Source of the DNA: Candidatus Kaiserbacteria bacterium
GTDB taxonomy: Bacteria > Patescibacteriota > Minisyncoccia > Phycocordibacterales > UBA2100
Length of the DNA: 64,000 nucleotides
NCBI GenBank assembly: GCA_016217925.1
Contig: JACRFK010000009.1
Location: forward strand, 33,191 to 97,190
Reading direction: 5' to 3'
The translations under genes and the position numbers were made by a program. Below, one piece after another: positions 30,531 through 61,553 of the stretch; the first letter of the stretch is position 1; every line of letters begins with the position of its first letter. The notes under the pieces were generated by a model. The model did not search any database. It was given only the letters and a program-made list of their open reading frames with translations, and had not been told where the DNA came from.

Positions 30531-30543
30531 CTAAAATCCGGTC

Positions 30544-31576: not shown

Positions 31577-31660
31577 GTCTTAAAGCCAAGATTTCACTAG
31601 GGAGATTGACGGATAGTAATTGATTGTGTCGTATTGCATAAAATAGGCGAAATATCATTG

Positions 31661-32769: not shown

Positions 32770-32916
32770 TCTCTGGGACTAAAGTACTTGCTTTAGTTGC
32801 AGAAGTTCTTGGAGGGTCGGTACCGCCGCCGGCGGTACCGACCTCCGGAGAGTCCTTCTTAGGGAAGGAAGGTTCTCCGGAGGGAAGCCTCTTAGCAAAA
32901 CAATATAAATAAAAAT

Positions 32917-33474: not shown

Positions 33475-33682
33475 TCCAAAAAACAGTATGACAACACATC
33501 TCGCAAAAAACAGCATTATAGGAACAATACTCATCGGCGCACTTTTGGCCCCGATGTTCGCCTTTGCCCAACCGTGCTCGCCTCGCCCCGGTAGCGGCGT
33601 GAGGACCCCAAGCGCCTTCAACGACATGAATGCTGTTATGGCCCGATTTCACCGCTAAGGCTAAGGAAAAGAGCACCATGGT

Positions 33683-34123: not shown

Positions 34124-34169
34124 GAGGAACTATTATCCTTTATTGATTATTAATTTAGAAAATAAATAT

Positions 34170-36131: not shown

Positions 36132-36160
36132 ATTATCAAATTAGTAATTACGAATAAATT

Positions 36161-36565
36161 ATGAACACATCAGTAACTCAGAAAACGTATGTAGTGGCCC
36201 TCGTGATACTTCTGGCAGTCCTTGCCTACATCGCGCTTGCGCCGACTGCGGACGCAAGCACACAAGTAGGGGGGAGATCAGACCGCACGCGCGAAGTAGG
36301 AGCCCCGTTGCCCGGAGGCACGGGCGGCACCGGAGGTTCGCAGGGCGGGACATCGGGAGAAAGCGGACAGTCCGGAGATTCGTCAACCAACGAAACATTG
36401 GACCAGGAGGCAGCACAGGCGCTCATCGATGAGATAGTAGACAACGTGCCAAACGAAAGCGACTTCCCGAGCCAAAGTGACATCGATGAAGCGACCGACC
36501 CGCCCACGATTCCCGGCTTTCTCGCCCTCTTCAATACGTTCCTCACACGCTTCCGGGATAGATAG
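36161..36565 (+). CDS. Small secreted acidic protein
   Basis: TM/signal segment VVALVILLAVLAYIALAP. Gly/Ser-rich. Acidic C-terminal half. Confidence 0.5.
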   Translation: MNTSVTQKTYVVALVILLAVLAYIALAPTADASTQVGGRSDRTREVGAPLPGGTGGTGGSQGGTSGESGQSGDSSTNETLDQEAAQALIDEIVDNVPNESDFPSQSDIDEATDPPTIPGFLALFNTFLTRFRDR

Positions 36566-36703
36566 TTGCCGGAACATCTCTGCTACGTGGGAGGGAATGG
36601 ATAGGTGGGAAATATGCCCTCAGTAGAGCCAAGATTCTCCTTTTCTCGGGGCCTTGACCTGTCTGTCCTTGAGAGGTAAAACTGGAGGCCCAGAGAGCGA
36701 ATT

Positions 36704-39700
36704 ATGATCAAAGTATTGTCAATATCAGAATCGAGAATAATGGCTGTATTCCTAGCTATAGCCATTATCTACACCCCGATAGCCCCCGCTGTCCTTTATG
36801 CTCAAGTGGCGACCACCACCGAGACCACCACGGAAACGAGGGCAGAGAGAGATAGAAATGCGGATACCGCGCCCCCGACCATCGAGCCTCACGCGAACGT
36901 AAACGCCGAAGCAACGTCTGAAGCCGGTGCCGTCGTTTCATACACTTCGCCCGCTACGACAGACGATGTAGACGGTGCGGGCGTCGCCTCGTGCTCTCCT
37001 CCTTCGGGCTCCACCTTCCCGGTCGGTAATACAGTGGTGACCTGTACCGCGACCGATGTCGCAGGCAACACGGCTACGATGTCGTTCTATATAAAAGTTG
37101 CCGCTCTTCCGCCGCCCGACACCGCCACGACCACTCCCGATGTCGCCACAAGCACGCCCGACATTATTGCAACGAGTACTCCCGACATTATTGCCACAAG
37201 CACTCCCGATGTCGCGACCAGCACTCCGGAGACAACTCCACCCGACGACCCGTCCGCCGCTTCGACCGCGTCCGCCAATTCGGCAGAAATTCCTCCGGAC
37301 CAATCCGGTACCGACAATACTGATTTCCAAAATATCATCAATGGAGGATCTGCAACTACCACGGACGATACACTACCTATCATCAATGCGAGCGCGACCT
37401 CGACAGAGGCACTCGCCCTTGATCCCAAGCTCTCCGTCGCCACTTCAACGGACGGCACCGGCTCGAAATTTGGCGGCACGATATTCACGGGAAGCGCCGT
37501 TGCCTCCACGACGGTCAACAATACTCTCAACATCACGCGCTCGAACGTAGACGGCCCCGGAGTGACCAACAGCTCCCACATCACTGCAGATACCGATAAC
37601 ACTGGTACCGTGACGACGGCCGATGATACGCGGGCGTTCACCGGAGACAACAATGGCTTCGGCGGAGAGGGCAATGCGACCATTTACACAGGCAACGCCG
37701 TCTCCTCCGCGCGGGTCTTAAACGTCGTCAACACCAACTTTTTCAATTCGACCGGTCTCGTACTCTTTCTCAACCCGCAAAATGGCGACGGCCTTGACCT
37801 GCGCACCGCCAATCTCTCGTACCTCATCGCCGGTGGTGTAGGGGCTTCCCCGACCAATCTAGGATGCACCATCCTCACGTGTCTCAATAGCGCGACATTG
37901 CAGATACTCAATAAAAACGTCGGCACCATCAACAACAACGTCCTTGTGCGTGCCTCGACAGGCGGCAATGCTGCGACTTCGACCAAGGAAGGAGGCATCG
38001 ACATACGGACGGGCGACGCATACGCTTCCGCAGCCGTCTTGAACCTCGTCAATACGAATTTCATCAACTCAAAATATTTTGTCGCGACATTCGATAATTT
38101 CGGCAGTATGCAGGGCGACGTCGTACTACCCGACGCAGGCTTTTTCAGGACATTCTTCAAGAACGGCAATACGCTGCCCGACCTCAATTCGAGTTCGTAC
38201 ATCGTCTCGAATGACAACGAAGAGACATTCGTGGGGACGACTACCGCCAATGCGCTTACCGGAGGAAACATCGCTACGACCACGAGCCCGGGTGACGGCC
38301 ACGGGGAAATAAAGACCGGACAAGCCTACACGTCGTCTACAAGCTACACCGCCGCCAACCAAACACACGTCGGTGGCTCATCGGCGCTGTTCGTGTTCCA
38401 CGTATCCGGCGCGTGGAACGGCACCGTCAAAGGCTTGCCCGAAGGCATGTCGTGGCGCCGTACCGATTACGGCATCGAGGTCTACAGTTCCGGCAACAAC
38501 TTGTCCACGAGCACACAAGGTATCTACAATTCGGCAACATTCATCGCTTCTTCGACCAACAGGGCGACCGTGAGAACCGACGTGAACGTCTGGGCTGAGA
38601 CCGGTGAGAACCGCGCGCAGACCGAGAACGGTACCTCGACCATCGCGACAGGAGACGCCTATGCGACCGCCAACGTCGTCAACATGGTGAACACCAACGT
38701 CGTCAACAGGAACTTCATGTTCGCCGTGTTCAATATATCCGGCGATTGGAACGGGGACATCGACTTCGGAGGCCACAGCCCGAACATGAAGGTGACGACG
38801 ACGGTGGACGCACCAAACCCCACGGCCCCGAACTCCGATGTCACCTACCACCTCACTGTTGCGAATAATGGCAGTGTTGATGCGGACAACGTCGTTCTTT
38901 CGGCAGCATACAACAAAAGCCTCCTCTTCATCTCGAGAAGCAACGGGCTCAGTTCGGATACCTCGACCGGTACAAAGTGGGACCTCGGCCGTATTCCTGC
39001 GGGAGGTACTCGTGAAATAATCGCGACCGCGCGCGTATCCGCTCCGGGCCTCTCCGCCGGGTTCTCGATGACCCTACCCTTGACGGCGACCGTCTCATCC
39101 AGTCTTCGAGATCAGGACGATGCCGACAATACACAGAGCGTCTCGGTCGTCGTCTCTTTGCCGGAAAGCGGAAGTACCGGAGGTGATACTACCAACACGG
39201 ATACCCGAGACAGAGGAGACCGCACGGATACCGGCAGCACTCCTCCGCCACCGCCACCCTCTGGAGGCGGAGGCGGCGGTGGAGGCGGCGGTGGAGGAGG
39301 CGGAGGCGGCAGTACCCCACCACCCTCCGGCGGCGGCGGCACGCCACCGCCCGCGGGCAGCGGAACCACCACCCCACCACCCGGCACTACTACCACTCCA
39401 CCACCGGCCTCAAATAACGGTACGAGTCCCTCGACAAACTCGGGCTCTTCGGGTGGCGGAGGTTCTACGCCCGCGAGCACGAATAATGGCGTATTCGTCG
39501 GCAACAACGCCATCGCGACGACATGGGAGCCGAACCCCGAGATAACGGTGGTAAAGACATCGAGTATCGTGAAGACGACAGCGCCCGCGACGGTGGACTA
39601 CAAAGTGATAGTGAGGAATAGCAAGAACGCGGGCGCGGCGTTCCGCGGACTGCTCACCGACATACTCTACAATCCGAAGGGGGCCGTTATGTCCAATCGT

Positions 39701-40381
39701 TCGTGGGACCTCGAGACGATAGTCCCCGGCGATGAGATAACGCTCACGTACACCGTTGAATACGCCACGAGTACTGCTCCGGGTAAGTATCACAACGTAG
39801 CGCGAGTGACCGCGAAGCGCAATTCGTCTATTGCCACAGCGCCCGATATAACGCCCGTTGAGGCGTCCCGAGATGTTGAATTTGGCTCCAACGGTCTTGT
39901 ACTTGGGGTTTCTACATCGAGCCCGAAGTTTGCGAGCTCGACCATCACCGTCGCGCCCACCTCCTGCGTCCCGCTCCTCACGACCTTTATGAAACAGGGG
40001 CAAGCGAACGTACCATCCGAGGTCGTAAAACTGCAGACATTTCTCAATACGGAAGGCGCACGGCTTCCGACGACCGGATTCTTCGGGTCCATGACGACGG
40101 CAGCCGTCAAGAACTTTCAGCTCAAATATAAGAGTGAGGTCCTGACACCGCTCGGACTTACGAGACCCACCGGCAATGTGTACGGCTCGACCCAAAGAAA
40201 GATAAACCAACTGAACTGTGGCGGGACAACGACCTATATGGAGAACGCACCTGCGGTATCTGCATCTGCGGTGAAGCCGGCGTCGAAGAAAGCTGCGGCC
40301 CCCGCGAAAGCTCCCGCGGCACCGAAGTCGTCCGGATTGCTCAACGCCGTCGGCTCGCTGTTCTCGAAGAAGTGGTGGTAA
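36704..40381 (+). CDS. Giant cell-surface protein (1225 aa): HYR-like domain, TSTPDIIA short repeats, TG(N/D)A..V.N.VNTN repeats, two DUF11-like domains, C-terminal PG_binding_1 and Lys/Ala-rich tail
   Basis: Signal/TM segment. HYR-like PPTIEPHANVNAEATSEAGAVVSYTSPATTDDVDGAGVASCSPPSGSTFPVGNTVVTCTATDVAGNTATMSFYIKV. Repeats IYTGNAVSSARVLNVVNTNFFNS / RTGDAYASAAVLNLVNTNFINS / ATGDAYATANVVNMVNTNVVNR. DUF11-like VTYHLTVANNGSVDADNVVL. Poly-Gly then Pro-rich stretch. PG_binding_1-like VVKLQTFLNTEGARLPTTGFFGSMTTAAVKNFQLKY. Confidence 0.8.
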   Translation: MIKVLSISESRIMAVFLAIAIIYTPIAPAVLYAQVATTTETTTETRAERDRNADTAPPTIEPHANVNAEATSEAGAVVSYTSPATTDDVDGAGVASCSPPSGSTFPVGNTVVTCTATDVAGNTATMSFYIKVAALPPPDTATTTPDVATSTPDIIATSTPDIIATSTPDVATSTPETTPPDDPSAASTASANSAEIPPDQSGTDNTDFQNIINGGSATTTDDTLPIINASATSTEALALDPKLSVATSTDGTGSKFGGTIFTGSAVASTTVNNTLNITRSNVDGPGVTNSSHITADTDNTGTVTTADDTRAFTGDNNGFGGEGNATIYTGNAVSSARVLNVVNTNFFNSTGLVLFLNPQNGDGLDLRTANLSYLIAGGVGASPTNLGCTILTCLNSATLQILNKNVGTINNNVLVRASTGGNAATSTKEGGIDIRTGDAYASAAVLNLVNTNFINSKYFVATFDNFGSMQGDVVLPDAGFFRTFFKNGNTLPDLNSSSYIVSNDNEETFVGTTTANALTGGNIATTTSPGDGHGEIKTGQAYTSSTSYTAANQTHVGGSSALFVFHVSGAWNGTVKGLPEGMSWRRTDYGIEVYSSGNNLSTSTQGIYNSATFIASSTNRATVRTDVNVWAETGENRAQTENGTSTIATGDAYATANVVNMVNTNVVNRNFMFAVFNISGDWNGDIDFGGHSPNMKVTTTVDAPNPTAPNSDVTYHLTVANNGSVDADNVVLSAAYNKSLLFISRSNGLSSDTSTGTKWDLGRIPAGGTREIIATARVSAPGLSAGFSMTLPLTATVSSSLRDQDDADNTQSVSVVVSLPESGSTGGDTTNTDTRDRGDRTDTGSTPPPPPPSGGGGGGGGGGGGGGGGSTPPPSGGGGTPPPAGSGTTTPPPGTTTTPPPASNNGTSPSTNSGSSGGGGSTPASTNNGVFVGNNAIATTWEPNPEITVVKTSSIVKTTAPATVDYKVIVRNSKNAGAAFRGLLTDILYNPKGAVMSNRSWDLETIVPGDEITLTYTVEYATSTAPGKYHNVARVTAKRNSSIATAPDITPVEASRDVEFGSNGLVLGVSTSSPKFASSTITVAPTSCVPLLTTFMKQGQANVPSEVVKLQTFLNTEGARLPTTGFFGSMTTAAVKNFQLKYKSEVLTPLGLTRPTGNVYGSTQRKINQLNCGGTTTYMENAPAVSASAVKPASKKAAAPAKAPAAPKSSGLLNAVGSLFSKKWW
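37129..37240 (+). repeat. Short tandem coding repeats (21-24 nt x ~5) encoding TPD(V/I)(A/I)ATS
   Basis: actcccgatgtcgccacaagc / acgcccgacattattgcaacgagt / actcccgacattattgccacaagc / actcccgatgtcgcgaccagc. Confidence 0.65.
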
Positions 40382-50864: not shown

Positions 50865-52214
50865 CTATGTGCGGGCGAGGTGCGGCAGAGGATACTTCTT
50901 GCAGAATATGCGTACTTCCTGCCGTATCTTCTTGAGGTTCGTATTTCGCTTGAGCTCCTTCTTGGCTTTCTCGAGGTACGCGGGACGGTCCTTCGTTTCG
51001 GTGGGTAGGCGATACTTGTGTGCTTCTTGGATTGCCCGCGCGACCCATTCACCAACTTTTTTCATCTCTGCTTCTTTCATGCCGCGGGTCGTCAGTGCGG
51101 GTGTGCCCAAGCGGACGCCGCTCGGATAGAAGGCGGATCCGGGGTCTTTGGGAATCGTATTCTTGTTCGCGGTCATTCCGGCGATTTCAAGTGCGTCGCT
51201 CGCAAAGTGTCCGCCGCCGGGGCCGAATACCGGCACAAGGTCGAGAAGGAGCAAATGATTTTCGGTGCCTCCCGAGACCAGCTTCAGGCCGTTTTTCTTG
51301 AGGCTCTCAGCGAGAGCCTTCGCGTTCCTCACAATCTGCTTGCCGTACGATTTGAATGCCGGCGTCGCGGCCTCTTTGAGTGCGATCGCGATCGCCGCTG
51401 TCTGATGGTTGTGAGGTCCACCCTGGAGACCCGGTATAATCGCTTTGTCTATCCGCTGGGCAAGCTCGGCATCCTTCGCGATGCCACGTGCCGTCGTCAT
51501 GATGATGCCGCCGCGCGGACCGCGGAGCGTTTTGTGCGTGGTTGTCGTGATGATGTGTGCGTGAGCGGCCGGACTCGGATGTGCGCCTGCGACAATGAGA
51601 CCCGCGACGTGCGCGATGTCGGCGGCAACGAATGCGCCGACCTCATCGGCGATCTCCATGAAAGATTTGTAGTCGTACAGGTACGGATACGCGGTCGCGC
51701 CGACCCAGATTAATTTCGGCTTGTGTTCGTGTGCGAGCTTCCTCACCTCTTCCATATCGATGCGTCCGTCTTCCCGCACATGGTAGGGAATGCTCTTGTA
51801 GAAGAGCGCGGTCGCGGAATATTTCCATCCGTGCGTCAGGTGTCCGCCGTCCGGGAGATTGAGGCCCATCACCGCGTCGCCCGGTTTGCAGATTGCCACG
51901 TACACGGCGAGATTTGCGGGACTTCCCGAGTAGGGTTGGACGTTGGCGAAGGGGACGCCGAAGATTTTCTTGGTGCGCTCGATTGCCTCTGTTTCAATCT
52001 GATCGATGAATTCATTGCCGCCGTAATAGCGCCGATTCGGGTACCCCTCGGAATATTTGTTGGTGAGGATGCTGCCCATCGCCTCCATCACGGCAGGAGA
52101 CGTGTAATTTTCCGAGGGAATGAGTTCGAGTCCGTCGGCCTGACGTTCCCACTCGCCCGCGATTGCTTTGTAAATTACTTTGTCCTCCTTTTTGATGCGT
52201 TTGTAGAGATCCAT
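50865..52214 (-). CDS. glyA: Serine hydroxymethyltransferase
   Basis: LELIPSENYTSPAVMEAMGS; PLP-binding Lys region TTTHKTLRGPRGG; 449 aa with C-terminal extension. Confidence 0.9.
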   Translation of the reverse strand: MDLYKRIKKEDKVIYKAIAGEWERQADGLELIPSENYTSPAVMEAMGSILTNKYSEGYPNRRYYGGNEFIDQIETEAIERTKKIFGVPFANVQPYSGSPANLAVYVAICKPGDAVMGLNLPDGGHLTHGWKYSATALFYKSIPYHVREDGRIDMEEVRKLAHEHKPKLIWVGATAYPYLYDYKSFMEIADEVGAFVAADIAHVAGLIVAGAHPSPAAHAHIITTTTHKTLRGPRGGIIMTTARGIAKDAELAQRIDKAIIPGLQGGPHNHQTAAIAIALKEAATPAFKSYGKQIVRNAKALAESLKKNGLKLVSGGTENHLLLLDLVPVFGPGGGHFASDALEIAGMTANKNTIPKDPGSAFYPSGVRLGTPALTTRGMKEAEMKKVGEWVARAIQEAHKYRLPTETKDRPAYLEKAKKELKRNTNLKKIRQEVRIFCKKYPLPHLART

Positions 52215-52251: not shown

Positions 52252-52881
52252 CTAAATCATAGATTTTGTTGATACGACCGATTGTATCGTCTCCTCGATA
52301 TTTCGCCAGACCTCTTCGAGCGGCTTGTCGGCGTCAATAATGAAGAAGCGCGGGTATTCAACGATGTGCTTCCGGTAGCCTTCGCGCACGCGCTCGTGGA
52401 ATGCGAGCTCCTCGTTGTCGAAACGGTTGGGCTCCTCGGGGCGGGAGTGCGCGCGGGCGAGACCGATTTCCGGTGACACGTCGAGAAAAATTGTCGCATC
52501 GGGAACGCAGCCCTTGTTGATAGTCTTGGACATCGTAAAAAGAAAATCCCGGTACTCGGGTTTTTGGCGGCCGTACACCTGATAGACCATCGTGGAGAGC
52601 TCGAAGCGGTCACAGACGACCGTTTTTCCGGCAGAAAGCGCAGGCTCGATGACATCGGCAATGAGTTGCGCACGCGCCGCGAGAAAAAGCAGAAGCTCCG
52701 TCGCCGTATCAATTCCTTGCGCCTCTTGCGAGAGCACGAGCTCCCGTATTTTCTCTCCGATGGGGCTTCCGCCGGGGTAGCGGGTGAAAACAGCGTCGGG
52801 AAGCACCGCGTGCAAACGCTCCATCAGCACTGATTTGCCCGAGCCTTCGCCGCCCTCAAAAACGATAAATTTTCCGCGCAT
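52252..52881 (-). CDS. tmk: Thymidylate kinase
   Basis: MRGKFIVFEGGEGSGKS P-loop; DRF/DR motif (CDRFELST). Confidence 0.85.
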   Translation of the reverse strand: MRGKFIVFEGGEGSGKSVLMERLHAVLPDAVFTRYPGGSPIGEKIRELVLSQEAQGIDTATELLLFLAARAQLIADVIEPALSAGKTVVCDRFELSTMVYQVYGRQKPEYRDFLFTMSKTINKGCVPDATIFLDVSPEIGLARAHSRPEEPNRFDNEELAFHERVREGYRKHIVEYPRFFIIDADKPLEEVWRNIEETIQSVVSTKSMI

Positions 52882-52915: not shown

Positions 52916-53455
52916 TCAATCTTGCAATGGGGTAACAGATTCCGTCGAGTTTGGTACGGGGCGCGCACCCTCAAACTGCTTGCCGATAACGTTGCCCGCA
53001 TGCGCCTTGTTGAAGAGTTTTTCGCTGTCTTTGAGGAGGTAGACGTTCTCGATGCCCGCTTCGATGATGGCATTCCAACAAGGCTGACATGCCCACCAGT
53101 GGCCCCAGAGATACAGGTCGGCGCCGATGGTTTCGTGGCCGTTCTTTAAGGCGTCGGCTATCGCCCGTGGCTCGCTGTGATTCTTGGGGTCGCACCCCTC
53201 GCACAATTCGTAGCCGTGCCCCGTGGGAATTCCACGCCTCACGCGTTCGCAGCCATGCAATTTGTGGTAGTCACTCCCGTTTGCCCCTCGCCCGATTATC
53301 TCGCCGTTTTTTACGACAAGGGAAGCGTTGGGCATCGCCTCGTCGAGCGAGTGTGCGCGGGCCCAGTCCCGGGCCTCTTGCATAAAAGGGTTGTGCGCAT
53401 CCACGTACTTGATGATGCGGCCGGTGGGAAGGTAGGGGTATTCTATTGCCGACAT
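52916..53455 (-). CDS. dCMP deaminase (CMP/dCMP deaminase zinc-binding family, ComEB-like)
   Basis: HSEPRAIADA (H-x-E) and PCWNAI (PCxxC) zinc motifs. Start set at MSAIEYPY. The upstream extension of track ORF 52916..54364 is antisense to thyA. Confidence 0.7.
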   Translation of the reverse strand: MSAIEYPYLPTGRIIKYVDAHNPFMQEARDWARAHSLDEAMPNASLVVKNGEIIGRGANGSDYHKLHGCERVRRGIPTGHGYELCEGCDPKNHSEPRAIADALKNGHETIGADLYLWGHWWACQPCWNAIIEAGIENVYLLKDSEKLFNKAHAGNVIGKQFEGARPVPNSTESVTPLQD

Positions 53456-53509
53456 AAACGCAACTTTACCACAATTGGCGGGGGCACTTCCGCATCGTAC
53501 AATGCCTCC

Positions 53510-54346
53510 ATGACCCGCTTCGACGAGATGTACCAAGGAATGTTGAAGCGCATCATGGAGGAGGGCGTCCGCGAGAAGAATCAGCGCACCGGACACGAAA
53601 CGATAGCGCTGCCCGGAATGCACTTCTCTATAGACATCGAAAAAGAAGGGCTCCCGCTCCTCACGTTGCGAAAGATCCCGGTCAAAATGTTCGTCGCTGA
53701 GCAGATATGGTTTATCTCGGGGGCACGCAAGCCCGCTGATTTCCTGCGCGACTACACGAAGATTTGGGACAGCTTCACGAACCCGGCGGATGTCGTTACG
53801 GTCGCGTACGGATATCGCTGGCGCAAACATTTCGGCCGCGACCAGCTCGGCCTTCTTGTCGACCTGCTCAAAAAAGATTCGAGCTCGCGCCACGGCGTCG
53901 TCGTCACGTGGGACCCCGCGCAGGACGGGCTCGGCGGCATAAAAAAGGCGAACGTCCCGTGTCCGTATACATTTACGGTCAACATCATCGGCGGACGGCT
54001 CCACCTCCACAACATGGTCCGCTCCAACGACATGATGCTCGGTTTTCCGTCGGACGTTGCGGGCTTCGCGCTTTTGCAATGTATCCTCGCGCAAAAACTC
54101 GGTGTCACGGCAGGGGTGTACTCGCACTCCATCTCGAATGCGCACGTATACGATAATCAACTCGAAGCGGTGCAAGAACTGTTGCGTCGCACCAACGACC
54201 ATGCGCCCATACGCGTGACTTTGCCCAAAAACACCTACGACCGCTCGGAGAAGAAGGACAAAAAACTGGTGGACGAAATAGTGAACCCCATCGCCGCACA
54301 ATACAACCCATTGCCGGCCATTACAGGAATGCAAATCGTGCTGTAA
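53510..54346 (+). CDS. thyA: Thymidylate synthase (ThyA) family enzyme with atypical active site
   Basis: Aligns to ThyA over its full length (NQRTGHET; VPCPYTF; VRSNDMMLGFPSDVAGFALL; HVYDNQ). Catalytic Cys and R166/D169 equivalents present. PCH replaced by PCP. Asp at the position of E. coli Asn177. Confidence 0.75.
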   Translation: MTRFDEMYQGMLKRIMEEGVREKNQRTGHETIALPGMHFSIDIEKEGLPLLTLRKIPVKMFVAEQIWFISGARKPADFLRDYTKIWDSFTNPADVVTVAYGYRWRKHFGRDQLGLLVDLLKKDSSSRHGVVVTWDPAQDGLGGIKKANVPCPYTFTVNIIGGRLHLHNMVRSNDMMLGFPSDVAGFALLQCILAQKLGVTAGVYSHSISNAHVYDNQLEAVQELLRRTNDHAPIRVTLPKNTYDRSEKKDKKLVDEIVNPIAAQYNPLPAITGMQIVL

Positions 54347-54357: not shown

Positions 54358-54996
54358 ATGGCAATACTGACCAAAGACGAGATATTGGCGCGCGTAAAGA
54401 AGGGCAACATTGAATTCAAGCCCGGCCTCGACCGTTTCCAACTGCAGATGCATGCGGTGGACCTACGGCTCGGATTTACATTCCTGATACCCAAGGCCTG
54501 GAAGATGACCGCGAAGGGGAGGCAAGCGCTCAGTCTCGACCCGCTCAAGGACCACGGGCCCGAATATTTTGACGTCATCGAGCTCGAACAAGGTCAGTGC
54601 TTCGAACTCCTTCCGCAGGAATACGTACTCGTATCGACATTCGAGACGATAAAAGTGCCCAATGACCTGATGGCAGTTCTTTATCCGCGCTCGTCGGTCA
54701 ACCGCAAAGGGCTTTCCGTCGACCTCACGGGAATCATCGATTCGGGTTATGAAGGACCGCTCACGCTTCCCATCCGCAACAATACGAATTCCCAGGTCAT
54801 CCAACTGCACCCAGGCGAGCGTTTCTGCCAGATTGTCTTTGAAGAGCTCACGCACAAAGTGGAGCCAAAGAAATCGCGTTGGCACCAGAAGGATGTCGTG
54901 GAGAAGGGCAAGAAAGAAAAAGCGGCGGAAATGAAACTCGTATTTAACGGCGACCTCAAAAAATTGAAAAAGGATTTCTCCGCTACCGACCAATGA
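54358..54996 (+). CDS. dcd: dCTP deaminase (dUTPase-fold)
   Basis: N-terminal MAILTKDEIL. Typical dcd length 212 aa. GIIDSGYEGPLTLPIRN motif (dUTPase motif III-like). Confidence 0.7.
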   Translation: MAILTKDEILARVKKGNIEFKPGLDRFQLQMHAVDLRLGFTFLIPKAWKMTAKGRQALSLDPLKDHGPEYFDVIELEQGQCFELLPQEYVLVSTFETIKVPNDLMAVLYPRSSVNRKGLSVDLTGIIDSGYEGPLTLPIRNNTNSQVIQLHPGERFCQIVFEELTHKVEPKKSRWHQKDVVEKGKKEKAAEMKLVFNGDLKKLKKDFSATDQ

Positions 54997-55731
54997 GATG
55001 ACATCTCATTGTGTTATGCTAGGTCAATGGCAAATCGCCCGCCATTCGAGATAGAGGAGTGGTACCACTGTTTCAATCGAGGGGTTGAAAAGCGGAAAGT
55101 CTTTGAAGATGAAAATGACGCGAAGCGATTTCTGATGTTGCTATACCTCGCGAATGGCACGGCGCCGATTGAGATTTTTAATGATCCCAAACCCTCACTC
55201 AAAAAAGTCTTTGAAACAGACCGCGGGGACCCCGTTGTTGGAGTGGGCGCGTTCTGTCTCATGCCAAACCACTTCCATCTCTTATTGAAAGAAACGACGG
55301 AGGGAGGAATTAGTTCCTTTATGAAAAAAGTCGGTATCGCCTACGTGATGTATTTTAACGCCAAGAACGAGCGTGTCGGGAACCTTTTTATAAAACCTTT
55401 CCGCTCTCGGCATATTGCAACTGATAGTTATTTTCAACACGTTCTCCAGTACATACATTGCAACCCGGCGGAGTTGTATGAGCCGGGCTGGAAAGAGGGC
55501 AAGGTTCGGAGTATGCGTTCTCTGGAAAACAAACTTCTGAACTATCCCTACTCAAGCTTCGCAAGCTATGGAGAGAGAAAGGCCATCAGCCCTATTCTTT
55601 CTGCAGATGGATTTGACGTTGCGAATCAGTTGCCGGTCTCTCGTATGCTCGAAGACGCGAGATCCTATTACGCGCAAGTCGCTCAGGAACGATTCGAGAA
55701 GTAGTCCAAAACAATGAGATGACATCTCATT
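54992..55731 (+). mobile_element. IS200/IS605-family element (tnpA only) bounded by identical 19-nt perfect palindromes
   Basis: aatgagatgacatctcatt + gtgtt at 54992-55015 and again at 55713-55736, flanking a HuH Y1 transposase gene. Inserted between dcd and folA. Confidence 0.7.
55009..55704 (+). CDS. tnpA: IS200-like HuH Y1 transposase
   Basis: WYHCFNRGVEK. CLMPNHFHLLL (HuH). Conserved C-terminal Tyr region. Paralog of 30544..31242. Confidence 0.75.
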   Translation: MCYARSMANRPPFEIEEWYHCFNRGVEKRKVFEDENDAKRFLMLLYLANGTAPIEIFNDPKPSLKKVFETDRGDPVVGVGAFCLMPNHFHLLLKETTEGGISSFMKKVGIAYVMYFNAKNERVGNLFIKPFRSRHIATDSYFQHVLQYIHCNPAELYEPGWKEGKVRSMRSLENKLLNYPYSSFASYGERKAISPILSADGFDVANQLPVSRMLEDARSYYAQVAQERFEK

Positions 55732-55760: not shown

Positions 55761-56267
55761 ATGAATAAGCCTTCGATCTGCGCGGTGGTCGCGATAGGGA
55801 AAAATCGGGAGCTGGGAAAAGAGGGGAAACTGCTTTGGCACATTCCCGACGACCTGAAGCGTTTCAAAGAATTGACGCTCGGGCGTCCCGTCATCATGGG
55901 TCGCAAGACTTTTGAATCCATTCTCGGCTATACGGGCGGCAAGCCGCTTCCAGGGCGCACGAACATCATCGTCACGCGCGACGCCGGGTGGAGGTATGAG
56001 GGGGTCATCGTTGCGCCGTCGCTCGAAGATGCTCTGGAAAAAGCCAAACGACTCGACGCTGAAGAGATACACATCGGCGGCGGGGCGCAAATCTATGAAC
56101 AAGCCTTGCCGTACATCACCAAGCTCTACCTCACGCTCGTAGACGACACAAAAGAGGCCGACACCTTTTTCCCCGCGTATGCCGATGAGTTTACAAAAAA
56201 AGTATTTGAAGAAGAGAGGGAATGGAACGGATTGAAATATTCGTGGGTGGATTTGGAGAGGGTATAA
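55761..56267 (+). CDS. folA: Dihydrofolate reductase
   Basis: ICAVVAIGKNRELGKEGKLLWHIPDDLKRFKELTLGRPVIMGRKTFESI: canonical DHFR N-terminal motifs. Confidence 0.85.
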   Translation: MNKPSICAVVAIGKNRELGKEGKLLWHIPDDLKRFKELTLGRPVIMGRKTFESILGYTGGKPLPGRTNIIVTRDAGWRYEGVIVAPSLEDALEKAKRLDAEEIHIGGGAQIYEQALPYITKLYLTLVDDTKEADTFFPAYADEFTKKVFEEEREWNGLKYSWVDLERV

Positions 56268-56286: not shown

Positions 56287-56871
56287 TCATGGGCCGCCCC
56301 GGTTAACAAGGTGCTTCGGATCGAGTTGCTTGGGATCATTTGGGAATAGTGCTAGGAACGCTGAGACCCGTTTCTCAAGGAGCTTTTTCCGGTTCGTAGG
56401 ATGGTTGAACCTCAACCATGTATCAGCCGTGAGGGGACTTTCCGGATCCTTCAGTTCCCGCCGGTACTCGTACCGACAGAATCCGCAGGACACGGTCACT
56501 CCCTCTTTGAAATAGCCACTGAAGTCATCCGCTTGCGGCGGCGCTTCGATGACCATGCCGATGATTCGGCTTTTCATCTTTCGTGCCATCTTGATGCCGA
56601 ACATCTCGGCACAGTGATCGGGACACATATGCTGCCGCGGCCCGACCCGCTCTTTGAAGTTGCTTGCGCCGATACACGCGAGTTCGCGCTTCGGCGTGAG
56701 CACGACGAGCCCCGCTCCGACGTCGAATGGCTTATCCGGCCTCGGAGAGAATGCGTCTTGTCGCTGTCCGTGGGCGATTTGCCCGAGCAGTCGCTTCTTG
56801 AGCTTCCAGATCCTGTCCAGGTCCATCGGTTCGACTAGAGCGAGCCGATGTATTTGATGGATTCTGACCAT
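56287..56871 (-). CDS. Hypothetical Cys/His-containing protein, last gene of the GTP-cyclohydrolase operon
   Basis: 194 aa. HMCPDHC and SCGFCRYEY motifs. No family recognised. Separated by 13 nt from the upstream RibA-like gene. Confidence 0.45.
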   Translation of the reverse strand: MVRIHQIHRLALVEPMDLDRIWKLKKRLLGQIAHGQRQDAFSPRPDKPFDVGAGLVVLTPKRELACIGASNFKERVGPRQHMCPDHCAEMFGIKMARKMKSRIIGMVIEAPPQADDFSGYFKEGVTVSCGFCRYEYRRELKDPESPLTADTWLRFNHPTNRKKLLEKRVSAFLALFPNDPKQLDPKHLVNRGGP

Positions 56872-56884
56872 TTGACAGTCCTCC

Positions 56885-57448
56885 TCACGCGCTGGCGGTT
56901 GACGGTTGCCACGTATGCGACGGCTTTGCGAAGCAATACTCCTGAGTGACCGTAAAGCCGCCTTTCTCTACGGCTTGACGTTTTCCGTCGTTGCAGCTCA
57001 ACAATCGGATTTGTCTTGAGACCTGCAAGTCCCGCAAGATTGCGACTTCCTCGTCGTAACCGCGGAAGTCGTTGCTCTCGAGGCCGATGGCAGAGAGATC
57101 CTCGGCACTATCGCATCCCGTTTCTTGTCTGTTGGCCATGGCCAACGTCTTAGTCACGAGATCGACGCCGCGACCTTCTTTGTGCGGCGCGTAAACGAAC
57201 ACGCCGTGTTGTGCGCCGGCGATTACTCGCAACGCATCATCGATTTCTTGACGGCAGTCGCAGTCCGCCGAGTGGAAAACGGTGGCGTACACGCATCCGG
57301 ACTGGATCCGGACGAACGGGTTACCCGTGGTTACGTCGCCACAGGTGACACACGCGTAGTCGTGGCCGCCGATTTTGTAGGCGGTGCAAGCGAAGTTGCC
57401 GTACTTGGTTGTCGGAAGTTTGGCTTGCGCCCGGGCTTTGATCAACAT
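56885..57448 (-). CDS. GTP cyclohydrolase II (RibA)-family protein
   Basis: AKLPTTKYGNF..GHDYACV.GD; VRIQSGCVYATVFHSADCDCRQEID (three Zn-ligand Cys in RibA spacing); HKEGRGVDL; RLLSCNDGK. Aligns along the whole of E. coli RibA. Confidence 0.7.
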   Translation of the reverse strand: MLIKARAQAKLPTTKYGNFACTAYKIGGHDYACVTCGDVTTGNPFVRIQSGCVYATVFHSADCDCRQEIDDALRVIAGAQHGVFVYAPHKEGRGVDLVTKTLAMANRQETGCDSAEDLSAIGLESNDFRGYDEEVAILRDLQVSRQIRLLSCNDGKRQAVEKGGFTVTQEYCFAKPSHTWQPSTASA

Positions 57449-57460
57449 CAGTCATCTCCT

Positions 57461-58249
57461 TCAATTTACAGGTTGAAGTTCCCGCTGCGCCTCGTACTTT
57501 CGAAGAAGCGAGTCGGTAGCTTGAACGTACCGGATAGCCTTCCTCATATTGAGGAGGTCAGCCGGAAAATCACGCAGCTTTGATTCTGCGTCCGTACTTA
57601 GAGCGAACTGCCGAAGTAGGTCACTCAGACTTTCTTCCACGTTGTCACCATGAAGGCCGCCGGCAGCCACGAGACCGACATTCGGCAGTAGCTTCTCGAT
57701 TGCCTCGTAGGTGCGACGCGTAAAGTCCACGTTAATGTCCTTGCCTTCGCCTGCGCTCGGGTCAAGGATAACGCGGTCGAAGGTATCGCCGTACAACGCA
57801 AGCCGCCGCGCGACCGCCTTCGGCTCCCAGTTCACGGCGTCGAGTGACTCCTCTTGCAGTGCGATGGTGACGCACGCTCCAGGGTAACGTTTCTTATATT
57901 GGACGAGCGCTTTCGCACTCGGCCACATCGTGTTGAGCTGGAAGCCGTGAAAGCACGGCCCTGCCGCTTCGTGCGCCCTGCTCAGGTTCTCGAATAGATC
58001 GAACCCGGCATCCGGGTGGATATGCAGGACATTAAGCACATTGTTGTACGGAAGAAAGATTTCCGACAGACGTGATGTGGACGGACAGCGATTAGGCCAT
58101 TTGAATGGCTTCCAATCCGAGGGTTTCCCGTGAATGCCGCAGCCGACCATCAAGAGTCGATCGGTAGGCAGTGCCGCACGCACGGCACCCACCTGAGCAC
58201 CGGTTTCGAAACCGGTGATACCGACGTATGATTCTGGCCTCATGGCCAT
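57461..58249 (-). CDS. Phosphoribosylanthranilate isomerase (TrpF)-like TIM-barrel isomerase
   Basis: YVGITGF (cf. KICGI). DPSAGEGKDINVDFT (cf. D.G.GGSG..FDW). VGLVAAGGLHGDNVEE (cf. LAGGL..DNV). ALSTDAESK (cf. G.D.NS..E). Confidence 0.55.
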   Translation of the reverse strand: MAMRPESYVGITGFETGAQVGAVRAALPTDRLLMVGCGIHGKPSDWKPFKWPNRCPSTSRLSEIFLPYNNVLNVLHIHPDAGFDLFENLSRAHEAAGPCFHGFQLNTMWPSAKALVQYKKRYPGACVTIALQEESLDAVNWEPKAVARRLALYGDTFDRVILDPSAGEGKDINVDFTRRTYEAIEKLLPNVGLVAAGGLHGDNVEESLSDLLRQFALSTDAESKLRDFPADLLNMRKAIRYVQATDSLLRKYEAQRELQPVN

Positions 58250-58397
58250 CCTCCTCTGTTTGTTACTCTATTACTTTAGGCGATGGTGTAAGCATCGCAC
58301 CGTAGCGAATATAAACATAAATATATAGCGATGTCAAATAAAAAGATGAGCTCCCGGTTTGCACCGGGAGCCCGTTTGTTGTGGATCGACGCAAAGA

Positions 58398-59684
58398 TCA
58401 GGTGAGAAAAGTTCGGCCGCGCACCTCGTCCAATTTGGTGACGTTCGATGTCACGTCCATGGTGAAGTAACCGTCGGCCTTCTTCGCCTCGATTTCAACA
58501 TGAGCGTCGGCCGGGATGAGTTCCGCGGGGATCTCGATCCGTTCGATCACCTCGATGCCACTGCGTATAATGGCGTCGTATTTGTCGTTGGACATGCTCA
58601 CCAGCCTGATTCTGTGAAGACCGAGCCAGTGAAGTGGATCGGGCATGAACTGCTGGAAGCGCGCGTCCCGGAAGCCGGCCACTTGCTCAGTGCAAGCGAA
58701 GTACTGGGCAGCGGTGTCGCCGCCAGGCTGACGCTTCCTGCGGTTGTACACCATCAGTTTCGTAACTGCGCCGAGGCCACGTCCCTCCTTGTCGAAGTAG
58801 ACGATGACACCGACGCCGCCCTGTTGAGCGCAACGGACGCATTCCTCGAAGGCGTGCGTCAGATACGGGCGACAGCAGCAGACGTCGCTACTCAGCACAT
58901 CCGATCCGATACAGGCATCGTGCACGCGCACGGTGACCGTTGTTTTTGGGTCGGACAGTTTCTTCGCGTCACCGAAGATGATCACGAGCGTTTGCCCGAT
59001 AGGTGGCAAGAAAACCTGCAAGTCCCTTCTCGTCACAAGATCAGGGAACATGCCGCCGGTCTGTTCGACCAGCGTACGCCGCAAATCGAGCTCACTAATT
59101 CCGAGCCGATCCGCGACGCCAGGCAGGTGCCATACCGGATCGATCGCGATTTCGGTAACGGGACAGGCGTATGAGACCCTGCCCGTTGCTTCACCGTTGC
59201 GACGCTCATCTTCCGCTTTGAGGATTGAGCCGTCAACTTCCAGTCGGCCGGCGATGACCGCTTCGCGGATCTCGAGTGGACGAATGTACGCCCGAGTGAC
59301 AGCGATTGTCGGACGAATGTCGTATCCGCCCGCGATGAGGTCGGCGAACGTCTCGGTGACGTTCGCGCCGAACGGATCCAGCGTCACGATCTTTCCGGGT
59401 TCGAACCATTGCGGGAACGGCCCGATGACATCGGTCGGATACGTATCGTACAGATCCGGTTTCTTGGTCGGGTCGTACATCCCTGCAGCTACGGCCATGC
59501 TCCGGCTCAGCGAGAATTGTCCCCCATGAACACCCAGCACATTGCGGCGCTGAGGATCTGAAAGTGTCGCGATGATGGGGCCACGTTTGGCCGGGTCAGT
59601 TGCGCCCCAAAGGATTGGTAGAGGATTGGTCTCATGTGATGCAGGGTCTGATGCCCCGGCATTCACTACAGGTTTATTATTCAT
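58398..59684 (-). CDS. Two-domain GTP cyclohydrolase: N-terminal GTP_CH_N-like domain fused to a RibA-like domain
   Basis: C-terminal TVRVHDACIGSDVLSSDVCCCRPYL...DKEGRGLG (RibA-like Zn/active-site region). ~250-aa N-terminal domain, as in the Streptomyces-type FAPy-forming GTP cyclohydrolase III-like enzymes. First gene of a four-gene minus-strand operon. Confidence 0.6.
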   Translation of the reverse strand: MNNKPVVNAGASDPASHETNPLPILWGATDPAKRGPIIATLSDPQRRNVLGVHGGQFSLSRSMAVAAGMYDPTKKPDLYDTYPTDVIGPFPQWFEPGKIVTLDPFGANVTETFADLIAGGYDIRPTIAVTRAYIRPLEIREAVIAGRLEVDGSILKAEDERRNGEATGRVSYACPVTEIAIDPVWHLPGVADRLGISELDLRRTLVEQTGGMFPDLVTRRDLQVFLPPIGQTLVIIFGDAKKLSDPKTTVTVRVHDACIGSDVLSSDVCCCRPYLTHAFEECVRCAQQGGVGVIVYFDKEGRGLGAVTKLMVYNRRKRQPGGDTAAQYFACTEQVAGFRDARFQQFMPDPLHWLGLHRIRLVSMSNDKYDAIIRSGIEVIERIEIPAELIPADAHVEIEAKKADGYFTMDVTSNVTKLDEVRGRTFLT

Positions 59685-59836
59685 CTTACACGTCCCTTCA
59701 ATGCTCTCTCATGAGAGCGGTTGCATTTTTATGGCAGAGCCATAAGCCACTTTTAGAGCCGAAAAGTTGGCGAACGGCACTAAGTGAAGATTATACGATT
59801 AAAAGCTCTACTGTCAATAATCATACATACCGTTAT

Positions 59837-59880
59837 TAAAAAAAGAACGCCTCGCCGATACGAAGACCAACGAGGGTTCT
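59837..59880 (-). terminator. Rho-independent terminator (minus strand) after gene 59897..60358
   Basis: Minus-strand reading: agaaccctcg-loop-cgaggcgttct followed by ttttttt (plus-strand a-run 59837-59844). Confidence 0.55.
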
Positions 59881-59896
59881 TCCATCAAGCGAAGCG

Positions 59897-60358
59897 TTAT
59901 AAGCCGGCTTTCCAGCTGGCGAAGGTGACGATGCCGGCGCCGATGAAGGCGACAGCGTGCCATCCGTTCAGTGGATTGCCACCATACAGTTTCATGACGA
60001 AGATTGTAACCACCTGCGCCATGAGGCAGATCAGGAAGTAATCGGGGTACTTTCCCGCAGGGGCAGTCAGGAATATGAGCAACGCCATGCAGCTCGTTCC
60101 CAAGAGCGAGATTACGCCGCCGAGAACGACCAGCCGGTACGAGCCTGGTGCCATTCCCGTCGGCCACCCACCTTGCCAGATCACTAGCGGAATCATCAAA
60201 ACAGCATAGACGATTCCGACCATCATCATGGAAGCACCGACAGGCATTTTGCTTGCCTCAATCGGGGCCGGCCATGTTACGAAGCATACGGCGATCAGTA
60301 TGCTGAGTGCGGGCAAGAAAAACGGCGCCGCCATTAGAGAAGCGAGCAGGTTTGTCAT
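59897..60358 (-). CDS. Hypothetical polytopic membrane protein
   Basis: Start moved to the Met (MTNLLASLMAAPFF) with a GGGAGG RBS 7 nt upstream. Five hydrophobic helices. Confidence 0.5.
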   Translation of the reverse strand: MTNLLASLMAAPFFLPALSILIAVCFVTWPAPIEASKMPVGASMMMVGIVYAVLMIPLVIWQGGWPTGMAPGSYRLVVLGGVISLLGTSCMALLIFLTAPAGKYPDYFLICLMAQVVTIFVMKLYGGNPLNGWHAVAFIGAGIVTFASWKAGL

Positions 60359-60422
60359 CGGTGTCCTCCCGAGTTGGAATTCAAGGAACGTATGGGAACA
60401 ATAGTACAATAATAGTGTCTTG

Positions 60423-61442
60423 TCAAGTTCTCCCAAGACTCTTCAAAACCTTTAAGTAGAGGCTTTCGACTATTTTCTGCTGGGCGCGGCCGGATTTGAC
60501 GTAGTGGTCGAGCCCGGGCGCAGCGTTCACTTCGAGCACCCAGTATTTCTTTGGCTTCTCGCGGATGTCGCCATGCACCATGAGGTCTACGCCGCAAAGT
60601 CGGAGACCCATGTCGCGGGTGAGCTTGACCGCGAGCTTCTTGAATTCTGGATGAATAGGCTTGGTCACGTCTACCGCATCGCCTCCGCTCGAGAGGTTGG
60701 CATTGTCGAGAAGAAAGACCTGTTTACCGCGTTCAGGCACGGAGCGGAGTGCAAGCTGCTGGATACCGAGCTTATGCGCGATGCGGATGTCGTCGAGCCG
60801 AATGCGCGTGTCGCGGCTTGATGCGACGAACCCTTTTTGTTTTTTCTTGAGGAGCGTCTTAATACTTGAGCGACCGTCGCCCACGACGGAGAGCGGAATG
60901 CGCTCGTACGCCGAGATGACTGTGTTGTCCAGGACCACGATGCGATAATCGCGCCCGCGCACCACGCGTTGGACCAAAGCGATGCGGTCGTTCCTGAATA
61001 CGAATCGCATAGCGCGGTAGAATTCGCGTTTGCCACGCACCACAAAAACGCCGCTCCCATGGCTTCCCGAATTGGGCTTCACGACGACGGGGAAGCGGAG
61101 CCTGCGCGCATAGCGGTACCCCGCGTCAATGTCGCGCCGCACGCCGAGCCCACGTGCGAAATCTTTGCGAAAAAATGTTTTTCCCTCGATGGTGGGGTAG
61201 CCCATGTGCGTCATGAAGAACGCTGCGTAGTCTTTGTCTTTGGCGATGTCGGAGGCGCCGACGGGATTCAAGTCGAGTGTGTTGTAGCGGAAATAACGTT
61301 TCTTCCCGTCTTTGAATAGTATCTGCCCGGCGATTTTCCACTCCGGCTCAAGCACAACCTGTGCGCCGAGCTTCTTACCGAGCTTTTGCAGCATCCCGGC
61401 GAGGACGAGATGTTCGGATTTCTTCTTCATCTGCGCTATCAT
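60423..61442 (-). CDS. ATP-grasp domain protein (cyanophycin-synthetase/RimK-like ligase)
   Basis: ATP-grasp features: VVVKPNSGSHGSGVFVV, DYRIVVLDNTVISAYERIP, LLDNANLSSGGDAVDVT (cf. CphA NLSTGG), VLEVNAAPGL. The track ORF starts at a TTG (61511). ATG at 61442 used here, but the start is uncertain. Confidence 0.6.
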   Translation of the reverse strand: MIAQMKKKSEHLVLAGMLQKLGKKLGAQVVLEPEWKIAGQILFKDGKKRYFRYNTLDLNPVGASDIAKDKDYAAFFMTHMGYPTIEGKTFFRKDFARGLGVRRDIDAGYRYARRLRFPVVVKPNSGSHGSGVFVVRGKREFYRAMRFVFRNDRIALVQRVVRGRDYRIVVLDNTVISAYERIPLSVVGDGRSSIKTLLKKKQKGFVASSRDTRIRLDDIRIAHKLGIQQLALRSVPERGKQVFLLDNANLSSGGDAVDVTKPIHPEFKKLAVKLTRDMGLRLCGVDLMVHGDIREKPKKYWVLEVNAAPGLDHYVKSGRAQQKIVESLYLKVLKSLGRT

Positions 61443-61553
61443 GGCACAATGGTTGGCGACATGCATCCCCCAAGGGGACTGCGATTTGCTGCGTCTCTTC
61501 GAGACGTGCAAATCGGGAGCTTGACATTTTGCGCGAAGGTAGTATCATAGACC

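Follow-up and report, generated by a model that had tools for sequence, protein, structure and literature searches.

The DNA analyzed here, hereafter the window, is a 64,000-nucleotide stretch of a Candidatus Kaiserbacteria bacterium genome (GenBank assembly GCA_016217925.1, contig JACRFK010000009.1, positions 33,191 to 97,190 of the forward strand). At 53510–54346 (+) it carries a gene of the thymidylate synthase (TS) family, whose 278-aa product was predicted to be a folate-dependent C5-methyltransferase of deoxycytidine monophosphate (dCMP), of the type encoded by phage Xp12. The gene was found in a cluster arranged in the order of glyA (−), tmk (−), a gene for a CDA-fold deaminase (−), the TS gene (+), a gene for a DCD-like protein (+), a Y1-transposase-like gene (+), and a gene for dihydrofolate reductase (DHFR) (+). 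The window as a whole was a piece of a Kaiserbacteria-like chromosome encoding a class II ribonucleotide reductase (RNR), HisRS, LepA, MurJ, tRNAs, and large surface proteins.

The start of the TS gene at 53510 was consistent with the 278-aa length shared by more than 100 homologs. A Pfam search matched residues 7–252 to PF00303 (Thymidylat_synt, E 2.2e-52), indicating a full-length TS-fold protein, and the protein, in which the catalytic residue set is present, is a member of the TS superfamily. Among solved structures, bacterial ThyA proteins were the best relatives in a phmmer search (top match 6auj, E 8.7e-31). An AlphaFold2 model (mean predicted local distance difference test score (pLDDT) 80, predicted template modeling score 0.84) likewise found full-length ThyAs as its best PDB folds, with template modeling (TM) scores of 0.71–0.77 and 24–28% identity in the superposition. 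Out of seven NCBIfam equivalog cutoffs, only that of the ThyA model TIGR03284 was passed (123 versus 108); the other six (NF002497, NF002496, NF002495, NF002499, NF002498, and NF010393) were missed widely (e.g., 142 versus 327).

An earlier note on this DNA, made by manual alignment, had described a PCP active site and an Asp at the position of Asn177 of E. coli ThyA, and both were confirmed in three pairwise and three multiple alignments. In the pairwise phmmer alignments with 6auj, 3ix6, and 4h0r, the segment "vpCPytf" of the window TS stood opposite "pCHamf/pCHclf/pCHllf", and "rsndmmlGFPSDVAGfall" stood opposite "rsadvflGVPFNIASyall" of solved ThyAs. MAFFT alignments were made of the window TS with E. 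coli ThyA and 133 cluster representatives (taken from 50%-identity clusters after 1.84 billion proteins had been searched), then with phage and T4 references added, and then with 80 orthologs; the E. coli ThyA reference sequence was checked for C146, H147, and N177. In all three, Cys151, Pro152, and Asp182 corresponded to C146, H147, and N177 of E. coli ThyA, respectively. A register shift that would place an Asn opposite N177 was thus rejected, since all six alignments gave Asp, and the comparison with the wider TS family that the earlier note had proposed, run here with ThyA, phage, and T4 references, left the register unmoved. On the plus strand, the codons of the catalytic Cys151 (TGT, 53960–53962) and of Pro152 (CCG, 53963–53965) are followed by those of Val170 (54017–54019), which is equivalent to E. 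coli Gln165 and L. casei Gln217, and of Asp182 (GAC, 54053–54055), the pyrimidine-specificity residue. Phe89 (53774–53776) is a clade-specific substitution at the position of E. coli Trp83. Gln217 of L. casei TS presumably serves to orient Asn229. Hereafter, TS positions are given in E. coli numbering unless stated otherwise.

To describe how far these substitutions extend, 81 orthologs from Kaiser-, Adler-, Nomura-, and Taylorbacteria and others were examined. In ThyA specific for deoxyuridine monophosphate (dUMP), Asn177 pairs with O4 and N3-H of uracil and is kept in place by Gln165 and the water network of His147; the window TS carries Asp182, Val170, and Pro152 (own numbering) at these positions, and the orthologs were alike throughout: D177, P147, and F83 occurred in 81/81, and position 165 was Val or Ile in 81/81, as against Gln or Met in the canonical clade. 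Position 127 was His or Gln in the orthologs versus Arg in ThyA, and it co-varied with D177 and P147, as did W83F and Q165V/I. The residues E58, W80, Y94, R126, C146, R166, S167, D169, and H207 were kept in every one of the 81, R21 in 80, and Y209 in 75, the other six having Trp. A sporadic substitution or a sequencing error was therefore rejected, and the invariance of D177 and P147 together with their co-variation with other positions demonstrated that the substitution is not due to chance. In the alignment of 135 sequences (the window TS, E. coli ThyA, and the 133 representatives), position 177 was Asp in 117 and Asn in 18; F83 was present in 110, and W83 and His147 were almost confined to the N177 sequences. 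A neighbor-joining tree of 145 sequences, built without bootstrap, split into two clades, a canonical one with W83/R127/H147/Q165/N177, to which E. coli ThyA belongs, and one with D177. The latter held the clade of the window TS, which thus lay outside the canonical ThyA clade, together with the TS of the phages Xp12, Mallos, and RcSimone-Hastad, while T4 gp42 formed the outgroup on a very long branch.

The same phages emerged from a tblastn search of 50,697 phage genomes, in which the best matches to the window TS were those of the Xp12 group (33–36% identity, E 1e-36 to 1e-42), and the T4-like td was a weaker match (31% identity, E 3e-25). The window TS and Xp12 TS have in common the motifs AYGYRWR.HFGRDQL and WDPA.DGLG..KNVPCP, which are without counterpart in ThyA. 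Xp12 TS carries "NVPCPTSF", that is, P147, plus an Asp at 177, and the signature at positions 83, 127, 147, 165, and 177 reads F-R-P-L-D in Xp12 TS and F-H-P-V-D in the window TS. Xp12 DNA contains 5-methylcytosine (5mC) in place of all its cytosine, and the classical dCMP methyltransferase is the TS homolog of this phage (Feng, Tu and Kuo, 1978, cited in PMC5175136). Production of 5-methyldeoxycytidine (5mdC) in vivo has been reported for Xp12 TS and for five of seven tested D177 homologs (bioRxiv 10.1101/2024.12.05.627091). In addition, the single substitutions N177D in the E. coli enzyme and N229D in the L. casei enzyme turn TS into a dCMP methylase (described in 1992 by Hardy and Nalivaika and by Liu and Santi, cited in PMC8670742), and positions 177 and 147 were the top two separators of the TS of cytosine-modified from unmodified phage contigs in metaviromes (PMC8670742). 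On the basis of these residues and relationships, dCMP is probably the main substrate of the window TS.

Compared with the Xp12 dCMP methyltransferase (QNN97214.1) and its PaMx74-, Mallos-, and RcSimone-type relatives, the window TS shares the TS fold, D177/P147/F83, and a ThyA-like C-terminus, is 33–36% identical over 90–98% of the length, and likewise has a CDA-fold deaminase and DHFR as linked partners. The two types differ in that the window TS is chromosomal and a core-genome gene in hundreds of Patescibacteria whereas Xp12 TS is phage-borne; in position 127 (His/Gln versus Arg) and position 165 (Val versus Leu); in the partner deaminase, which belongs to a lineage unrelated to the Xp12-group deaminases; and in the diphosphatase partner, which is DCD-like at the window locus and a HAD or MazG protein in the Xp12-type phages. 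Moreover, Xp12 has 5mC-substituted DNA, and the organism of the window is not known to.

A cytosine-specific member of the TS family could in principle act on ribo- or deoxyribonucleotides, and could methylate or hydroxymethylate its substrate. In the study of MilA, ribo-specific members were characterized by Lys133′ (equivalent to E. coli Arg126′) and Ala176 (equivalent to Ser167) (PMC5175136). The corresponding residues of the window TS are Arg127 and Ser172 (own numbering), and Arg and Ser were found there in 81/81 orthologs, which indicates a deoxyribonucleotide substrate. Although the MilA/BcmA cytidine monophosphate (CMP) hydroxymethylases resemble the window TS in having Asp at the specificity position, they carry Lys133′, Ala176, and an additional helical domain at the C-terminus; the window TS, at 278 aa, has Arg, Ser, and a ThyA-type C-terminus without such a domain, and a ribonucleotide substrate was accordingly rejected. 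As for the reaction, about 27 C-terminal residues of E. coli TS close over the folate, and T4 dCMP hydroxymethylase, which is without them, releases tetrahydrofolate (THF) and needs no DHFR (PMC5175136). The C-terminus of the window TS aligned with that of E. coli ThyA up to its end, YNPLPAITGMQIVL standing opposite YDPHPGIKAPVAI. The Xp12-type enzymes, too, keep a ThyA-like C-terminus, and gp42 (the sequence used being identical to PDB 1B49) ends about 40 columns earlier. The retained ThyA-like lid, the linked DHFR, and the Arg/Ser pair together favor reductive methylation of dCMP over hydroxymethylation. A (d)CMP hydroxymethylase forming 5-hydroxymethyl-(d)CMP, as T4 gp42 or MilA/BcmA do, would account for the Asp at 177 common to gp42 and MilA, and gp42 is a TS-family enzyme acting on dCMP as proposed for the window TS. 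However, gp42 lacks the lid that the window TS keeps, has Thr at 147, and is far more distant in sequence, lying on the very long outgroup branch with a best ThyA match in the PDB of only E 2.6e-10. With the DHFR linkage and the absence of the Lys/Ala pair of the ribo-specific enzymes added, such an activity appears very unlikely. The cytosine-nucleotide substrate predicted in the earlier note thus gained support from the shared D177/P147 clade with the Xp12 methylase, and was narrowed to a dCMP methylase at the expense of the CMP enzyme and the hydroxymethylase that it had also named.

The genes around the TS gene were next compared across genomes. The serine hydroxymethyltransferase GlyA (50865–52214 (−), PF00464, E 1e-154) supplies 5,10-methylene-THF; the dTMP kinase Tmk is encoded at 52252–52881 (−) (TIGR00041, 162 versus a cutoff of 83); and DHFR, at 55761–56267 (+) (PF00186, E 7e-47), would recycle the dihydrofolate arising from a reductive TS reaction. 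folA genes of the candidate phyla radiation (CPR) complement an E. coli ΔfolA strain (PMC11974145). When one genome per species was scanned with a 10-sequence alignment, 279 stretches encoding a TS relative were obtained, and the counts given below were taken from the best 80, all of which were from Patescibacteria with TS identities of 67–95%; the nearest TS homologs came from metagenome-assembled genomes of Kaiserbacteria, Parcubacteria, and Paceibacterota. The divergent deaminase adjoined the TS gene in 78 loci and the DCD-like gene followed it in 77, the absences in both cases falling at contig ends. DHFR was present in the cluster in 55–63 loci, GlyA nearby in 54–61, and a Tmk-family kinase in 57, and the synteny held down to 67% TS identity. 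In the window, only 54 bp (53456–53509) lie between the divergently oriented genes for the deaminase and TS, and the DCD-like gene lies 11 nt downstream of that for TS; these short spacings imply tightly shared regulation. An Rfam scan of the window found only four tRNAs, all located elsewhere, and no riboswitch or other Rfam element in the cluster. A prophage or recent transfer was disfavored, the cluster lying amid housekeeping genes (glyA, tmk, hisS, lepA, nusG, and rplK in related loci) and keeping its synteny at TS identities as low as 67%. With E. coli ThyA and T. maritima ThyX as tblastn queries, no second ThyA or ThyX turned up in the 80 loci or the window itself, a search space of about 1 Mb surrounding the cluster.

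As an observation apart, a MazG-domain protein of approximately 111 aa (PF03819, E 2e-10) was encoded beside Tmk and the deaminase in 19 of the 80 loci (e.g., L023 6400–6735 (−) and L026 6360–6698 (−)), the cluster of the window itself having no MazG. MazG/PRA-PH genes typically accompany the D177 TS genes of cytosine-modified phages.

The earlier note had weighed this "textbook" thymidylate cluster against a cytosine substrate, an argument that lost its force in the light of the phage genomes. In Xp12, Mallos, and RcSimone-Hastad, the TS gene is followed in the same cluster by a dCMP deaminase gene and then a DHFR gene, with a pyrophosphohydrolase or HAD hydrolase gene before TS in Xp12 and RcSimone-Hastad and none annotated in Mallos. 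Since the TS/deaminase/DHFR linkage occurs in 5mC phages, the cluster suits a dCMP methylase equally well. In addition, the product of the gene regarded as dcd is without the Glu that we take to be catalytic in Dcd, as described below.

The partner deaminase, encoded at 52916–53455 (−), is a 179-aa zinc deaminase of the CDA/dCMP-deaminase fold (PF00383, E 2.3e-10). Its HxE and CxPC zinc motifs are present (HSE...CQPC), yet the protein is very divergent, with a best PDB match of E 0.008 and a score far under the NCBIfam ComEB cutoff (29 versus 219). The nearest folds to its AlphaFold2 model (pLDDT 81) were the S-TIM5 dCMP deaminase, the PBCV-1 dCMP/dCTP deaminase, and T4 Cd, at modest TM scores. 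In phages, a deaminase encoded in cis with a D177 TS has been shown to be 5mC-selective, and thymidine nucleotides were proposed there to arise by deamination of 5-methyldeoxycytidine nucleotides, bypassing a dUMP-dependent synthase (bioRxiv 10.1101/2024.12.05.627091). No homology of the window deaminase with the Xp12-group deaminases was found by BLASTP (best E 0.13), and the partnership of TS and deaminase thus seems, from sequence comparison, to have arisen independently of the Xp12 group. That the window deaminase prefers 5-methylated substrates is pure conjecture on our part.

Directly downstream of the TS gene, at 54358–54996 (+), lies the gene for a 212-aa protein of the DCD/dUTPase superfamily. 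Although this protein passed the TIGR02274 cutoff (113 versus 92.8), alignments to solved Dcd proteins placed a Pro opposite the Glu of the Dcd "TLEL" motif. This Pro138 (54769–54771 (+)) occupies the position of E. coli Glu138, and Asp122 (54721–54723 (+)) that of His121. Glu138 is the catalytic residue of E. coli Dcd, a role reportedly described by Johansson et al. (2005). Both replacements occurred in 73/73 DCD-like orthologs, whose mean column identity was 86%, whereas S111, R115, and D128 were kept. The engineered variants of E. coli Dcd deposited in the PDB are E138A, E138D, and H121A (the reference sequence used being identical to 1XS1). The motif G-IIDSGYEG of the DCD-like protein resembles dUTPase motif III. 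A homolog search returned close relatives only, at 79% identity or more, and no close relative was found in viral contigs. Taken together, the product of the window "dcd" gene is probably not a standard dCTP deaminase and probably a (d)NTP diphosphatase; the "dCTP deaminase" annotation would then probably be wrong across hundreds of Patescibacteria genomes, whatever the pathway. Its substrate could be dCTP, so that dCMP is fed to TS as by T4 gp56 or phage MazG proteins; dUTP, as for archaeal-type dUTPases; or 5-methyl-dCTP, keeping 5mC out of DNA. If, as is likely, the protein is not a standard dCTP deaminase, the main argument for a supply of dUMP from dCTP is removed.

The observed features, namely the TS signature and its invariance, the clade, the gene linkage, a deaminase–TS fusion described below, and the Glu missing from the DCD-like protein, can be joined into a putative route in which the TS substrate and product, the substrate of the deaminase, and the role of the DCD-like protein are all inferred. 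The class II (B12) RNR of the window (7904–10267 (+); Pfam ATP-cone, RNR_Alpha, and RNR-II_ins_dom) is nearest to the NTP-reducing RTPR family, scoring just under the cutoff of TIGR02505 (320 versus 340), and is likely the source of dCTP and dUTP. It would reduce CTP to dCTP, which would be converted to dCMP, possibly via the DCD-like diphosphatase; alternatively, the DCD-like protein may sanitize the pool. Cys151 of TS would then attack C6 of dCMP, while Asp182 would pair with N3 and the 4-amino group of cytosine in a pocket remodeled by Pro152 and Val170 (own numbering). The methylene of 5,10-CH2-THF would be transferred, and a cofactor hydride would then reduce it beneath the retained C-terminal lid, giving 5-methyl-dCMP and dihydrofolate, from which DHFR and GlyA would regenerate the cofactor. 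The adjoining CDA-fold deaminase would turn the 5-methyldeoxycytidine nucleotide into a thymidine nucleotide, most likely at the monophosphate level (dTMP), a placement suggested by the canonical Tmk, which would phosphorylate dTMP to dTDP. The net outcome would be a dUMP-independent thymidylate route in the core genome of Paceibacteria-type Patescibacteria. The whole route from dCMP via 5-methyl-dCMP to dTMP has, in our estimation, about an even chance of being correct.

The phage route from 5mC to T, made up of D177 TS and the deaminase mSCD-B5, resembles this proposal in encoding TS and a dCMP-deaminase-family gene in cis and in its methylate-then-deaminate logic. The phage route has been described only for viruses with fully 5mC DNA, however, whereas the host of the window TS is a cell; and mSCD-B5 acts on triphosphates and single-stranded DNA, whereas the canonical Tmk in the window suggests deamination of monophosphates. 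Tmk keeps the Phe, Arg, and Gln aligned to the thymine contacts of S. aureus TMK.

Several observations weigh against the dCMP route. The sole characterized 5mC-selective phage deaminase works on triphosphates, not monophosphates, and of seven D177 phage homologs assayed, two gave no 5mdC (bioRxiv 10.1101/2024.12.05.627091). The Patescibacteria clade is only about 35% identical to Xp12 TS, its function being predicted. The deaminase, with no significant match to those of the Xp12 group, could form dUMP from dCMP as ordinary dCMP deaminases do, and the canonical Tmk fits a dCMP methylase and a ThyA alike. In addition, the DCD-like protein could be a dUTPase of archaeal type, its second-best match, PDB 9ln0, having Met at the position of the missing Glu; in that case, dUMP, the canonical TS substrate, would be supplied from the dUTP of the NTP-reducing RNR. 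An alternative to the dCMP route is a divergent but true dUMP-dependent TS, for which RNR would furnish dUTP, the DCD-like protein would act as a dUTPase and convert it to dUMP, the deaminase would add further dUMP from dCMP, and Asp182 (own numbering) would be tolerated, for instance in a protonated state. Canonical ThyA of E. coli or L. casei indeed shares with the window TS the fold, the catalytic Cys, Glu, Tyr, and Arg, the lid, and DHFR-coupled reductive methylation; the linkage to DHFR, GlyA, and Tmk is as in ThyA systems, the TIGR03284 cutoff is passed, and public annotation and CPR metabolic reconstructions call the gene thyA. Nevertheless, canonical ThyA has Asn177, His147, Gln165, and Trp83 where the window TS has Asp, Pro, Val, and Phe. 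A true ThyA gives no reason for an invariant D177 co-varying with P147, V165, and F83, since Asn would suit dUMP better, and N177D mutants lose most of the dUMP activity (literature cited in PMC8670742). The protein, moreover, lies outside the canonical clade and inside that of demonstrated dCMP methylases, and falls far under six of the seven bacterial-type ThyA cutoffs. The suggestion in the earlier note that the enzyme may simply be a divergent ThyA is, in view of the D177 invariance and the clade, the less likely reading, and we regard it as unlikely.

An enzyme of dual specificity, methylating both dCMP and dUMP, with the deaminase rescuing 5-methyl-dCMP, would allow a scavenging symbiont to use any pyrimidine dNMP, and would accommodate a dUMP-producing diphosphatase or deaminase together with D177. 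Mutants of the N229D type keep some residual dUMP activity, which speaks for such an enzyme. In contrast, the pocket changes P147 and V165 all point one way, the explanation is less parsimonious, and we know of no natural TS with dual specificity; we thus consider it improbable.

A further possibility accepts the dCMP methylase but has its product phosphorylated and incorporated, so that 5mC replaces much or all of the chromosomal cytosine as in Xp12, with the DCD-like protein and MazG acting as dCTPases. The module does match that of 5mC phages (D177 TS, nucleotide diphosphatase, deaminase, and DHFR), and a deaminase-dead DCD-like protein, together with the MazG found in 19/80 loci, could deplete dCTP. 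However, Tmk keeps its thymine contacts, no dedicated kinase for 5-methyl-dCMP was seen in the cluster, and dTMP would need another source if all 5-methyl-dCMP went into DNA. Our literature search found no report of globally 5mC-substituted cellular DNA, and many Patescibacteria genomes have been assembled with no such anomaly noted. We therefore regard this as highly improbable, and the chance that 5-methyl-dCMP is both en route to dTMP and incorporated, replacing most or all chromosomal cytosine, as similarly slight.

Relatives of the window TS outside the Patescibacteria loci offered further examples of the same associations. Among viral contigs, only one, L085 (IMGVR_UViG_3300022222_000005, 40 kb), carried a close TS relative (7541–8819 (+), 50% identity), and it may derive from a phage of Patescibacteria with modified cytosine. 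In this contig, a small P-loop kinase-like gene overlaps that of TS, with no deaminase seen nearby. In L086, a Logan contig (SRR28892722) with a GC content of 33%, the 433-aa protein P0142 (8001–9302 (+)) has an N-terminal dCMP-deaminase domain fused to a D177 TS domain that is 38% identical to the window TS, and the next gene, at 9335–9973 (−), encodes a DCD-like protein of 212 aa in which Pro likewise occupies the position of Glu138. In another representative, P0151, a MazG/PRA-PH pyrophosphohydrolase is fused to a D177 TS, and sister D177 representatives were found in phage-like contexts adjoining deaminases or dNMP kinases.

The textbook cellular routes to thymidylate are those of ThyA and ThyX, both of which methylate dUMP. 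Our literature search found no paper joining Patescibacteria or CPR with Asp177 or dCMP methylation. The kind of enzyme and the methylate-then-deaminate logic are already known from phages, the logic from the 2024 preprint, and a conserved module in a cellular core genome would be new. Should the proposed route be correct, a large bacterial radiation would use a third logic, phage-type dCMP methylation followed by deamination, for which no dUMP or dUTP pool is needed; CPR metabolic reconstructions, in which the gene is counted as thyA and its neighbor as dcd, would change; and the retention of DHFR in such reduced genomes would be explained. A core cellular pathway would be tied to a phage DNA-modification module, implying gene transfer in either direction, and 5mC-rich DNA in these uncultured organisms would become a testable possibility. 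If cytosine were indeed replaced by 5mC, wholesale replacement of a base, hitherto known only from phages, would be seen for the first time in cellular organisms. Candidates for 5mC-selective deaminases and for dCMP methylases, both attractive to biotechnology, would also be available from these loci.

Other features of the window were recorded alongside. The IS200-like Y1-transposase gene at 55027–55704 (+), between the DCD-like and DHFR genes, has a counterpart at 30544–31242 (+); their products share 40% identity and their flanking DNA is dissimilar. A homolog occupies the same place in at least six of nine other homolog-bearing loci (e.g., L012, L016, L027, L031, and L074), and the gene looks like an old, fixed or domesticated (perhaps RAYT-like) gene rather than an active insertion sequence. 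Directly after the DHFR gene, a minus-strand block (56287–61466) encodes a 194-aa protein of no assigned function, a GTP cyclohydrolase II-like protein (187 aa), a 262-aa unknown, a protein combining GTP_CH_N with GTP cyclohydrolase II (428 aa), a 153-aa unknown, and a RimK-like ATP-grasp ligase. Among related loci, a RimK-like gene followed that for DHFR in 18, whereas FolD was present in 13 and a gene resembling F420-0:gamma-glutamyl ligase in 8. The block may represent a pterin/folate-type cofactor module or a URC-like pyrimidine module. Farther upstream, at 26109–40381 (+), the window encodes large predicted surface proteins of 805, 603, 653, and 1225 aa with peptidoglycan-binding, SpaA-like prealbumin-fold, DUF11, HYR, and RTX-repeat domains. 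After these come a subtilase, a protein with a CAP domain, and one with collagen repeats, the whole being typical of the attachment machinery of episymbionts.

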